A DNA stretch of 64,000 bases, taken from contig OZ244621.1 of assembly GCA_965218425.1 (NCBI GenBank), positions 3,264,001 to 3,328,000 of the forward strand, read 5' to 3'. The position numbers are program-made. Every line of letters starts with the position of its first letter. Position 1 is the stretch's first letter. Origin of the DNA: an uncultured Candidatus Binatia bacterium (GTDB lineage Bacteria; Desulfobacterota; Binatia; UBA9968; CAXXLF01). This document shows, piece by piece, positions 30,001-33,000 of this stretch.

Positions 30001-33000
30001 AAACATAATGGTGGATCCAAGGGCGTACTTCCCAGTTCCCATGCCTCTCCTTCCCACCAACGATTCTCCCTTCAATACGATAACATCGAGGCTTAGACGC
30101 CCGATACTGCTCTTGATCTGCTTGTGAACAGCTGGCTCTCTGAGGTCAAGCTCGTAGCCTCCTCCAATGGACCCCCATAGACATGGCGGTGACCTTATAA
30201 TATAGTGCCCCTGCTAACGGGGTGATCCGTAATTTAACTCATCCAGGGAGGAACCTGACGATTGGGTAGTGGCAAAGCGCTTCATGTTGCAACTCATTCC
30301 GGCTGGTACCGCTTTGAAAACAACGGTGGCGTTTATAAGGAGACCGGCAGGGCGCTTACCTACTGGACTTTAAGCTGCCTTGCCGTGGATCCAGAAGATC
30401 CTCAGACCGTCTATGCGGGCACTGATCACTCGGGCCTGTTTTTCTCACCTGACGGTGGTGTCTCGTGGTTGCGAGCAAACCCCGGCATACCCCATCTGAA
30501 CTTGTTTTCATTACTTGCCTTACCTGGATCACTCCTGGTGGGAACACGGCCGGCAGCCGTGTACCGTGGCATTCCAGGTGGCGACTGGCTGGAACTAGAG
30601 GGGGTGCGGACTGAGAGTGCCGGTGGAGTGTTTCCCCCTAACCCAGAACTCAGCCCACGGGTCCGCGCCTTGGCTGAAGATCCAGGTTCGCCCTCTCGCA
30701 TATATGCCGGGATAGAAGTCGGTGGGTTGCTGGTAAGCGACGATGGGGGCGAGGCATGGCAACCTGCAAACGACGGTCTCACCGATCCCGACGTGCACCA
30801 GATCTGCCATTGCGGTTACAACCCGGAATTGGTTCTTGCGGCCTGCGGTGAGGGAGTTTTTCGTAGCGTCGACCGTGCTTCCCACTGGGCAGAGGTTACG
30901 CCACAGGGGTCAAGGACCTATGGAACTACCATTGCTGAGGCGGCTGGCGGGATGATGTATCTGGGAATTTCTTTGGGCCGGCCCAACACCTGGCTCGGAA
31001 CAGGAAGAGCCAACTCTGCAATTATTCGAAGCCGTGAAGGGGGTCTTGACTGGGAAGTGGTAGCGGAAGGCCTCCGTGGTGGTATCATGGACACGACACC
31101 CGACCCAGACAGTGACGGAATTATCGCCGCAACCTCAGAGGGCGAGCTACTTGCCATTGAGGGGTCTGAATGTCGAACCCTTATAAGCGGCCTTCCCTGT
31201 ATTTCCGCTGTCGTATTTGGTGGCTGACCGTCGCTAGATGTTAAAGACCCTATCTGCGGGCATAAATTTGCATCCCACCGTTCCGGTCGAAGCCAATGAC
31301 GTTGTATGGCTGAGGGTTGGGACCCTCCATTCCGGGCGAGCCTATGGGCATGCCCGGTACGCCCAAGCCGGTGAGGGATGTACTCTCGTTTAATAGTTTC
31401 ATTATGAGATCGGCAGGGACATGACCTTCGATGACATATGTGCCAATGAGTGCGGTGTGGCACGAATATAAGGCGGGGGGAACGCCATGCTTTACCTTCA
31501 CCGTTTGAAGTTGAGACTGCGATAGCTCTTTGATCGTAACACGAAAACCATTCTCTTCCAGGTGACCCACCCAGCTGGAACAACAACCTCAACCCGGGCT
31601 TCTGTAGACCGTAATCTGCGGTCCAGCGGGGAGATTGGGCTGGGAGTATAGAACGGTAGCAGCAACCACAACTCCTATGGCGATGCTCATCAGTGAGAGC
31701 AATCGCAACCTTTTGATATTCATTTTCTTCATTTTCCTCTAGCTAGTTCTCACTGAAAAACTACCGTTTGTAGATGACTCTATGGCCCTGACACTCACAT
31801 CAGGCATTTCATTGCCGAGAAGGTGCGGTCCTTACCACCATCTTTTACCTCCTGCTGCCACAGATTGTATGCAAAAATGACCCATCCCGTCCAGATCGCC
31901 GTGCCTGGAGCTCCCCTAGCCAGTACTCGACCCAGAGAAAACTTGCCTTTGAGCATACCGATCCCCGCTTCTATCCCGCAGCCGACCCCTTGCATTGCCC
32001 TAAACCACTGTTTCCCCTCATGGCGGCTTTCCCTCATACTCAAGCCACCAACCTCCGGGATACCTACCCTCGCTATACCGGCCTTGCCCAACTTCCCGAC
32101 GTTATCGGCGCCTTAGTATCCTCGGTCCGCTGCCACCTCCTTAGGCTTGACCCCCAGACGCTTTTCACTTTGGCTCACCACACAAAGCAGTTGAGTGCTG
32201 TCGTTAGGATTACCACCATGGACCTCATCGTGAACGATGACTCCACAACTGTCGTGCACCAGTTGCAACGTGCGCCCGAACTCCACGGGCCTGTTGAGCT
32301 TGCCCTTGCAGGTGGCTCGTGCCTCGGCATCGTGGAACGAAACGATCCTATCGGGTATCGACTTCTTGCCCTGAAGCTTGTGCTCGGTCTGGCTCACAAT
32401 CCTCTCGGCCACCTCAATTTGTTCCAAATACTTCTCCTTGTCCTTACTTGGCTCCGACACCGTAGCACAAAGTCGTTCAAAGACCTTGCCGCTCTCGTGT
32501 ACCGTATGCTTGGCCAGCTTGCCCCATGCTTAACAATCTTCCCTCCCTTTTCCTTGCCCCCCTTGGGCTTCTCCCTTCCAGCCCCACTACAAGCAAACAG
32601 GGCTCGCTTGGTGCCACGTACATGCTGCCGTGCGGGTAAGCGTGTTGACCGCCCGGTCAACAACACCGACATCGTTGGGATAACTGATGTGAACTTGCAG
32701 CGTGGCCGAGTCGATACGAATGCGCCGGGCCTTGATCGATCGGCTCTTAACCAACGATCTGACCAGCTCCTGATTGAGCTTGGCCACCCGCTGTCGGCCA
32801 AATCCGTGGTTGAGCTTGATCAAGGTGGTGGCCTCCGCTACGGCATCCATGAGCGACCAATGGCAGAAATAACGCCACGGAACTCTCTCTCACTCACTTC
32901 CCTCTCAACCTCTTCGTAGCTCAAACCCCAGCGAAACTTCAGATACATCATTCGAAGGTAAATCCCTACAGGAGTGCCACGACGACCCGGCTCTCATGGA

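Follow-up and report, generated by a model that had tools for sequence, protein, structure and literature searches.

An uncultured Candidatus Binatia bacterium probably makes an exported, thioredoxin-fold protein of the CopG/DUF411 family in which a UGA codon would be decoded as selenocysteine (Sec) by SelB and tRNA-Sec, and which would handle copper; to this reading as a whole we give a probability of about 0.78. The gene lies in a stretch of 64,000 nucleotides of the genome, hereafter the window. That its UGA is genuinely decoded as Sec we hold, from sequence comparison, for very likely. Given this decoding, copper handling is the function we somewhat favour, as judged from homology only.

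A CopG frame with a single internal UGA

The gene and its candidate signals are the following, in window coordinates.

31250–31732, minus strand: DUF411/CopG gene with predicted Sec, from ATG at 31732 to the stop codon TAG at 31250–31252, 160 amino acids
31589–31591, minus strand: in-frame UGA, very probably read as Sec; it opens the motif U-G-C-C and is aligned with Cys in relatives
31736–31739, minus strand: Shine-Dalgarno-like GAGG ahead of the ATG at 31732, read directly
31558–31574, minus strand: SECIS-like hairpin CUGGGUG-GGU-CACCUGG, 7 bp with loop GGU, after a 14-nt spacer downstream of the UGA

The GAGG may function as the Shine-Dalgarno sequence of the ATG at 31732; an alternative start on the same strand, ATG at 31723, would give 157 amino acids, and the UGA is residue 48 or residue 45 when numbered from the first or the second of these codons. 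The TGA, in the context SPG-U-GCC, is the single internal stop of the frame, and it is there that gene callers cut the gene, into pieces of 47 and 106 amino acids. Re-reading the frame, together with the family profile and the structural alignment given below, bears out what an earlier note on this DNA had proposed, namely one read-through frame with one TGA at the first Cys of CxCC. The whole gene, TGA included, is found with zero differences in contigs of four public runs from three studies.

The read-through protein matches the PF04214 (DUF411) profile with 82 bits (cut-off 27, E 2.5e-23); a search of NCBIfam gave sub-threshold noise (E 0.075 and 0.24), in agreement with the earlier statement that no NCBIfam model matches. 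The solved CopG structure 6WIS is matched at E 4e-30, U standing opposite the first C of NCGCC, and the identity to the CopG structures 6WIS and 6WJE is 42–44%. The predicted structure (pLDDT 93.3) superposes on these two with TM 0.87–0.90 and rmsd 1.7–2.0 Å over 124–125 columns; the structure matches that come after CopG are weak ones, to thioredoxin and glutaredoxin. In the model a strand (39–44) is followed by U48, in a loop, and by a helix (50–60), and U48 with C51 would form a U-x-x-C pair where strand 1 meets helix 1, at the position of the thioredoxin active site.

Across 43 aligned sequences C50, C51, M128 and M135 never vary, the motif being here U-G-C-C. All the copper-ligand positions of the CopG family (C-x-C-C, C-H-T, a His and M-P-x-G-x-P-x-M) are likewise invariant in the 43 aligned Sec and Cys forms, and residues conserved at 90% or more stand on both sides of the UGA (V42 and Y43 upstream; W54, V55 and H57 downstream). 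Since Sec is an isostere of Cys, the sequence would carry the complete CopG motif, its first position included. Compared with CopG of Pseudomonas aeruginosa (6WIS/6WJE), the protein shares the PF04214 family, the thioredoxin-like fold, the C-H-T, His and M-P-x-G-x-P-x-M elements and the second and third Cys of C-x-C-C, whereas the first residue of the motif is Cys there and UGA-encoded here.

The N-terminus shows a basic stretch and then a hydrophobic helix at residues 6–29. The earlier note called the protein secreted: the helix is indeed seen, and it is from this helix alone that we infer export to the periplasm.

An identical second copy of the gene lies at contig positions 4453736–4454206, within a 13,102-bp inverted repeat (99.954%) of window positions 25962–39061 which extends exactly to the contig end. 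This copy and its repeat of about 13 kb, reported earlier as a duplication, are thus seen, but they are probably an assembly artefact rather than a true duplication.

Conservation and probable decoding of the UGA

Of the 401 Binatia genomes searched, 36, which belong to 17 genera, have an ortholog in whose frame TGA occurs exactly once, far more than the three genomes of the earlier note; in 36/36 the TGA is located at U-x-CC, so that Sec at the first Cys of the motif is upheld both by 6WIS and by these orthologs. (The 401 genomes include six flagged as unpublished, G208, G213, G339, G344, G349 and G372, none of which is Sec-form or among the fetched loci.) The orthologs are 47–60% identical to the window protein and show no other stop and no frameshift, and the Cys forms of Binatia (seven genomes and one paralog) have TGC or TGT at the column of the UGA. 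The TGA never varies over 35 distinct rows of orthologous DNA, although identity per column is only 75% among them, and its conservation is more than expected by chance. Besides, 13 of 35 orthologs terminate on TGA, which indicates that these genomes still use the codon to stop translation.

The TGA extends beyond Binatia. Among the 80 best of at least 598 relatives in genome_contigs, 12 have it at the column of the first Cys, and they belong to Binatia, Gemmatimonadota, Acidobacteriota and Chloroflexota; two of them repeat genomes already counted and nine come from the last three groups. The gene is absent from G214, a genome of the same genus as that of the window. On a tree of the Sec and Cys forms (123 columns, quick search) six changes between the two are needed, of which well-supported branches force only one.

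This conservation decides the case of a pseudogene, that is, a Cys-form CopG gene hit by a nonsense mutation, or a sequencing error. An IS element disrupts the upstream region in the window genome and the assembly has indel errors near the gene, which would both fit with decay or misreading; but the same TGA recurs in 36 otherwise open frames of 17 genera at the divergence given above, and is identical in the contigs of the four runs. The pseudogene is thereby effectively refuted, and we consider it hardly credible.

For decoding the UGA, the window genome possesses selA (592 bits), selB (413 bits), selD (378 bits, with an in-frame TGA of its own) and tRNA-Sec (76.5 bits), all at 1.30–1.31 Mb of the contig. 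Among the 36 Sec-form Binatia genomes, 35 have selA; since selA is found in 341 of the 401 Binatia genomes, this co-occurrence barely discriminates. The remaining genome, G333 (92% complete), carries the Sec-form gene with no selA, and with neither selB nor tRNA-Sec above the cut-off.

The hairpin announced by the earlier note is present, at 14 nt from the UGA and not 13. Its codons encode (S)-W-V-G-H-L-(E), and a longer stem, 31556–31580, is also possible in the window genome. Across the Sec orthologs 220 of 245 stem cells (89.8%) are paired, against 31–50% in slid registers, and compensatory variation is seen at pair 27-43 (GC/CG, 21 vs 7) and at pair 31-39 (GC, GU and AU variants). An alternative register (A1 columns 22–28 with 34–40), present in few g5 sequences only, was rejected, being 53.5% paired, the same as shuffles. 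The window hairpin passes a bSECIS test (loop of 3–9 nt whose first two positions include a G, stem of 4–16 bp, 16–37 nt from the UGA, MFE at most -7.5) with a local MFE of -10.2 kcal/mol; 31 of 35 Sec forms pass it, but so do 7 of 10 Cys forms, and we rejected this generic model as a means of telling the two forms apart. Compared with shuffled sequence the window hairpin is no more stable (z 1.27 and 0.27), and an Rfam scan of 31000–32000 at E <= 10 returned noise, with no SECIS family. The hairpin that follows the UGA of selD, with its CCC loop, has in this single comparison no pattern in common with that of the DUF411 gene.

In the Cys forms 51 of 70 stem cells are paired, which indicates that coding for W-V-x-H-L accounts for most of the stem; dictated by a conserved peptide and largely kept in Cys forms, the hairpin is by itself weak evidence. 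This qualifies the support that the earlier note drew from it. On the other hand the codon in the loop encodes Gly or Val (GGN/GUN) in 40 of 48 Sec rows (4/7 of those outside the big Binatia clade) against 3 of 79 Cys rows, the Cys forms having Asp or Glu (GAN). This loop codon, as far as the aligned sequences tell, is the feature that separates Sec from Cys forms, the stem being mostly common to both. The comparison with the bacterial SECIS consensus (PMC13188914, section 5 and legend of Fig. 2) goes in the same direction: shared are an apical loop of 3–5 nt starting with G then G/U, a stem of 6–7 bp, 21 nt from the UGA to the loop and the MFE of -10.2 kcal/mol, whereas the stem here is set by W-V-x-H-L and mostly found in Cys forms as well, only the loop letters differing.

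These observations also weigh on the possibility that the UGA terminates translation, leaving a 47-aa peptide and perhaps a 106-aa protein started at GTG 31570, or that a near-cognate tRNA reads it through as Cys or Trp into a selenium-free, full-length protein. The gene callers split the gene at exactly this point, the hairpin is energetically unexceptional and exists in Cys forms, and G333 has no detectable Sec machinery, all of which would suit such a reading. Yet the C-terminal piece would have neither export signal nor C-x-C-C, the residues V-Y-x-x-P-T just upstream of the UGA are kept in frame in all orthologs, the UGA falls exactly at the Cys column, the loop codon moves to the G[G/U] required by the bSECIS model, and the Sec machinery is present in 35 of the 36 carriers. 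We regard termination or near-cognate reading as improbable. For the Sec decoding that we prefer, the hairpin would be the element used by SelB.

Possible copper handling and genomic context

According to section 6.5 of PMC7558416, from which the CopG chemistry used here is taken, the Cu4 cluster of CopG is held by the conserved C-x-C-C and two nearby methionines; CutG of Rhodobacter capsulatus is named there as the counterpart of CopG. The Sec protein, putatively periplasmic, would hold copper on [U/C]-x-C-C with C-H-T, His and M-P-x-G-x-P-x-M as in Pseudomonas CopG, and like the latter it may shuttle or oxidise Cu(I). The position of the U48/C51 pair, at the thioredoxin active site in the model, suggests that Sec would serve as a softer and more nucleophilic redox or ligand atom.

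Upstream of the gene, the window contains two further features.

31744–33205, no strand assigned: decayed IS5-like element with broken DDE transposase frames, 17-nt imperfect inverted ends and TAG flanks
33218–33865, minus strand: gene of a DUF2231 membrane protein, likely a former operon partner of the Sec-DUF411 gene

The IS5-like element, which contains a DDE_Tnp_1 fragment (32113–32457) and has another copy at contig positions 876592–877580, is inserted 12 nt ahead of the start codon and separates the gene from its ancestral upstream partner, so that expression of the gene may be poor in the window organism. This partner is likely the DUF2231 gene, upstream of which lies an adh_short gene (33874–34575): the order adh_short, DUF2231, Sec-DUF411 is the same at the locus L019 of G105, a genome of the same family, where 25 nt separate the end of the DUF2231 gene from the start of the Sec-DUF411 gene.

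CopG genes are often linked to copA, cus or multicopper oxidase genes (PMC7558416, same section), but no such linkage is seen at the Sec-DUF411 locus: copper genes are missing from about 10 kb around the gene in the window, as are copA, cus and multicopper oxidase genes from 1.5 kb around it in 26 Binatia loci. A copper role argued from the gene neighbourhood thus finds no support, and we discarded the neighbourhood as copper evidence. As linkage to copA, cusCBA and cueO/cutO is frequent but not obligatory in the CopG family, its absence is no bar to membership. In the 26 loci the neighbouring genes encode NMT1-like binding proteins, amidohydrolases and oxidoreductases; of ten further Sec loci, only two have neighbours of a metal type, namely CusB/OEP at L069 and, at L110, a P-type ATPase together with DsbA.

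The missing copper genes are the first argument for a different job, in which a real selenoprotein of CopG fold would act as a selenol/thiol oxidoreductase, or would carry a chalcogen or a soft metal other than copper, in partnership with periplasmic binding proteins and ABC transporters whose genes lie next to its own in most Binatia. The U-x-x-C at the thioredoxin active-site position and a weak mycoredoxin-like match (E 0.075) point the same way, as does the fact that in 10 of the 26 Binatia loci the next gene downstream, with the same orientation, is one for an NMT1/THI5-like binding protein. These ten loci are nevertheless close kin, and genes of the NMT1-like and amidohydrolase kinds turn up repeatedly at several of the loci, also on the gene's other side, which makes the adjacency weak evidence. 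Moreover the invariance of the copper-ligand positions across Sec and Cys forms, and the identity (42–44%) and structural similarity (TM 0.9) to a copper-loaded CopG, argue against such a change of function, which we find rather unlikely. Copper handling keeps our preference, though by no means a strong one.

Relation to known selenoproteins

Neither PF04214, DUF411 or CopG nor the motif UxCC occurs in Table 1 or in the text of a 2026 review (PMC13188914); the same four are absent too from the text and one supplement of the BSepDB paper, and a literature search returned no published mention of a Sec form of CopG/DUF411. The earlier claim that the family is off current selenoprotein lists therefore holds for these sources. 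Table 1 of PMC13188914 does include other U-x-x-C selenoproteins, with the motif in domains of thioredoxin-like or metal-binding type: DUF3179, the thioredoxin-like Sec.1 and Sec.2, the metal-binding domain of E1-E2 cation ATPases and the CopZ family. In common with the Sec form proposed here, Sec stands in for a redox or metal-ligand Cys, Cys homologues coexist, and the SECIS follows the UGA closely within the coding sequence; the difference is that Sec would occupy here the site of a tetranuclear copper cluster.

DUF411 might have been pre-adapted to Sec: with the stem of W-V-x-H-L already at the right spacing, a change of TGY to TGA and of the loop codon from GAN to GGN or GUN could suffice, and the tetranuclear copper cluster of the product would then include a selenolate. 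We put this forward as a tentative scenario, which is doubtful as it stands but would explain the Sec forms in at least four phyla. To our knowledge, a selenolate in such a cluster is undescribed in any natural protein.

If true, the Sec form of DUF411 would add to the bacterial selenoproteome a widespread family of several phyla, whose gene is halved by annotation pipelines. It would also show cleanly how an RNA signal can limit the choice of an amino acid, Gly or Val in Sec forms against Asp or Glu in Cys forms. Finally, since the copper-cluster structure of a Cys homologue is solved, the effect of replacing sulfur by selenium at a defined metal site would be directly testable.

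The UGA codon and its reading as selenocysteine

The gene at 31250-31732 of the minus strand is a single reading frame, whose sole internal stop is the TGA at 31589-31591. Read through, it gives 157 aa from the ATG at 31723 or 160 aa from the ATG at 31732, the latter with GAGG four bases on its 5' side. The product carries a basic and hydrophobic segment at the N-terminus, then I-T-V-Y-R-S-P-G-U-G-C-C. It matches the Pfam profile of DUF411 (PF04214; 82 bits, cut-off 27); a search of the NCBIfam profiles gave no model for it. Among the sequences of solved structures the sole match is CopG of Pseudomonas (6WIS/6WJE, E 4e-30), and the alignment sets U opposite the first Cys of N-C-G-C-C. 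A structure model of the protein, built on 43 relatives (mean pLDDT 93.3), superposes on CopG with a TM of 0.87-0.90 and an rmsd of 1.7-2.0 A; thioredoxin and glutaredoxin come next, as weak matches. This model puts U in the loop that joins strand 39-44 to helix 50-60, so that U48 and C51 make a U-x-x-C pair where thioredoxins have their active site.

The read-through protein served as query against 401 Binatia genomes, of which 44 gave a match; six of the 401 are flagged unpublished, and none of these six has the gene or supplied a fetched locus. In 36 genomes of 17 genera the ortholog contains a single in-frame TGA (Sec form); these are two of family f1, the window organism included, and 34 of the 64 of family f2. 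Stop-free matches, with Cys at the U column (Cys forms), come from seven genomes (families f4 and f11) and from a divergent paralog that genome G319 carries; the one remaining match is weak and partial. The TGA stands at U-x-C-C in 36 of 36 Sec-type genomes, x being G, D, A, E or S, and the codon of the Binatia Cys forms at this column is TGC or TGT. It is invariant in 35 distinct DNA rows, whose columns are on average 75% identical, and conserved residues flank it on both sides. As 13 of 35 orthologs terminate on TGA, this codon is still a stop in these organisms. The whole gene, TGA included, shows zero differences in contigs of four public sequencing runs from three studies; one of the four runs may be of the sample that yielded the assembly. 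Against the Sec reading counts the same-genus genome G214, in which this search did not find the gene.

The genome holds the full Sec machinery in one 11-kb cluster outside the window, at contig 1300977-1311984:

Genes of the selenocysteine cluster (contig 1.30-1.31 Mb)
selA, 592 bits
selD, 378 bits, with its own in-frame TGA in K-A-S-G-U-A-A-K
selB, 413 bits
tRNA-Sec, 76.5 bits

The selD product thus appears, from its sequence, to be itself a selenoprotein. Of the 36 Sec-form carriers 35 have selA, which discriminates little, since 341 of the 401 Binatia genomes have it. The exception is genome G333 (92% complete, 5% contamination), which has the Sec-form gene without selA, and with neither selB nor tRNA-Sec above the cut-off. 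A single missing contig could explain this gap, because the sel genes lie within 12 kb in the window organism, but G333 remains an exception. Altogether it is very probable, at about 0.88, that the window gene truly encodes a CopG variant with Sec in place of Cys.

The hairpin and its loop codon

Beginning 14 nt 3' of the UGA is a hairpin with 6-7 bp in its stem and 3-5 nt in its loop:

31574-31558, minus strand: hairpin CUGGGUG-GGU-CACCUGG

In the 35-row alignment 89.8% of the stem cells are paired, against 31-50% after a shift of the partner by 1-3 columns, and two pairs are changed on both sides (GC 21, CG 7; GC 30, GU 3, AU 2). The bSECIS model (PMC13188914) is passed by the window hairpin and by 31 of 35 Sec forms. 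As evidence for Sec the hairpin counts for less than it seems to. Its stem follows from the codons of W-V-x-H-L, a conserved peptide; Binatia Cys forms retain 51 of 70 stem cells, and the bSECIS model also accepts 7 of 10 Cys forms. When folded, the window RNA is no more stable than shuffled sequences, and an Rfam search of the window RNA around the gene found nothing. Sec and Cys forms are told apart by the codon in the loop, which specifies residue x of the peptide. It encodes Gly or Val (GGN or GUN) in 40 of 48 Sec rows; among Cys rows most loop codons are for Asp or Glu (GAN), and only 3 of 79 are for Gly or Val. Kinship makes these counts larger than independent samples would. GGN or GUN gives the G[G/U] loop start that the bSECIS model requires, and the shift goes the way expected if the RNA constrains the protein. 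Of the seven Sec rows that fall outside the large clade of Binatia, 4 have the Gly or Val codon.

The terminal copy and the upstream insertion

The earlier note had reported a second copy of the gene, inside an inverted duplication at the contig end. The repeat is indeed in the assembly: window 25962-39061 is the near-identical reverse complement of the contig's last 13,102 bases (4446398-4459497), and 37792-42887 that of its first 5,096 (1-5096). Both inverted repeats hinge on a 1,268-bp IS at 37792-39059; it contains an rve-integrase ORF (37951-39027), and about 20 other places of the contig match it at 99.5-99.8% identity. The two copies differ at six sites, by four single-base indels and two substitutions. 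At the three testable ones (36069, 36914 and 37558; not every run has a row at every site) contigs with the version of the terminal copy carry all the depth, except at 36914 in run X2, where they carry half (5.34 of 10.3). In three runs, contigs continue without a break across 25962, the boundary of the repeat. In run X1 the word depth of contigs that lie wholly within the repeat shows no excess (8.3-9.1, flank 9.05), a hint only, as depth is not copy number. The second copy is most likely an assembly artefact. The assembly differs from contigs of 3-4 public runs at 33007, 36069, 36914 and 37558 (T>C, one missing A, two extra bases), likely consensus errors.

Upstream of the gene, 12 nt from the ATG at 31732 and between it and a DUF2231 gene, lies

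31744-33205: decayed IS5-like element of 1.46 kb; its transposase frames are broken, its inverted ends (17 nt) are imperfect and a TAG stands on either side of it

In genome G105, of the same family, the order is uninterrupted: adh_short, DUF2231, then Sec-DUF411 25 nt on. The insertion has thus severed the gene from what is likely its operon promoter. The element has a shorter copy at contig 876592-877580, and in two runs the contigs omit window 32200-32672, in keeping with that shorter form.

Origin and function of the Sec form

Outside Binatia, with one genome per species scanned, 598 relatives were found. Among the best 80 of these, 12 have TGA at the U column, 67 a Cys codon, and one was unparsed. 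Of the 12, two duplicate Binatia rows of the earlier count exactly and a third also comes from Binatia; the remaining nine belong to Gemmatimonadota (4), Acidobacteriota (2) and Chloroflexota (3). In a quick maximum-likelihood tree (127 rows, 123 columns) the Binatia Sec forms all fall within one all-Sec group of 41 rows (SH-aLRT 85), which also includes one Chloroflexota and one Acidobacteria Sec form; the Binatia Cys forms are placed elsewhere. The Sec/Cys label changes 6 times on the tree, against 38.6 in shuffles; strongly supported branches force only one change, so the Sec form may have had several origins or transfers. In one Cys-form Binatia genome (G019, L059:992-1828) a single 279-aa frame encodes two DUF411 domains as a tandem fusion.

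CopG proteins are described as periplasmic and thioredoxin-like, binding a tetranuclear copper cluster via C-x-C-C and two methionines and assisting copper resistance in anaerobic conditions; Cu(I) oxidation and copper hand-over to cuproproteins are their proposed activity, and their genes are frequently linked to copA, cusCBA or cutO (PMC7558416). The ligand-type positions are all invariant in the 43-sequence alignment: C48 (U), C50, C51, C91-H92-T93, H104, M128 and M135. Gene neighbourhood, in the window and at 26 Binatia loci, gives no support for copper. The window gene has a convergent BNR/Sortilin-like gene on one side and the decayed IS on the other; the 26 loci have NMT1-like binding proteins, amidohydrolases, GFO/IDH/MocA oxidoreductases, ABC ATPases and isochorismatases. 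At 10 of the 26 Sec-form loci (L020, L021, L026, L030, L037, L038, L041, L042, L044 and L045) the next gene 3' of Sec-DUF411, in the same orientation and in some cases touching or overlapping it, encodes an NMT1/THI5-like periplasmic binding protein, which suggests an operon with no obvious copper link. Metal-type neighbours occur in only two of 10 further Sec loci (CusB/OEP; a P-type ATPase with DsbA). BNR/Sortilin-Vps10-like repeat genes lie near Sec-DUF411 in the window genome (30262-31227), its closest Binatia relative (L064:2-847) and a Caldilineales genome (L110:1-1755), which may be coincidence.

With its ligand positions invariant but its neighbours silent on copper, the protein would, on balance, handle copper, a reading that we favour only slightly; that it acts as a selenol/thiol oxidoreductase, or carries another soft metal, seems rather unlikely.

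A Sec form of CopG is apparently unpublished: a full-text literature search found no mention of Sec in DUF411 or CopG among the matches listed, judged partly by title or abstract, and none of selenocysteine in Binatia. DUF411, CopG, PF04214, UxCC and UGCC are absent from the text, Table 1 and section 5 of a 2026 review of prokaryotic selenoproteomes (PMC13188914), in the parts consulted; DUF411, CopG, PF04214 and copper are absent from the BSepDB paper (PMC13326102), in its text and one supplementary file of 4.0 million characters. Though unsurprising as a concept, the finding is of solid relevance to the biochemists of selenoproteins and of copper.
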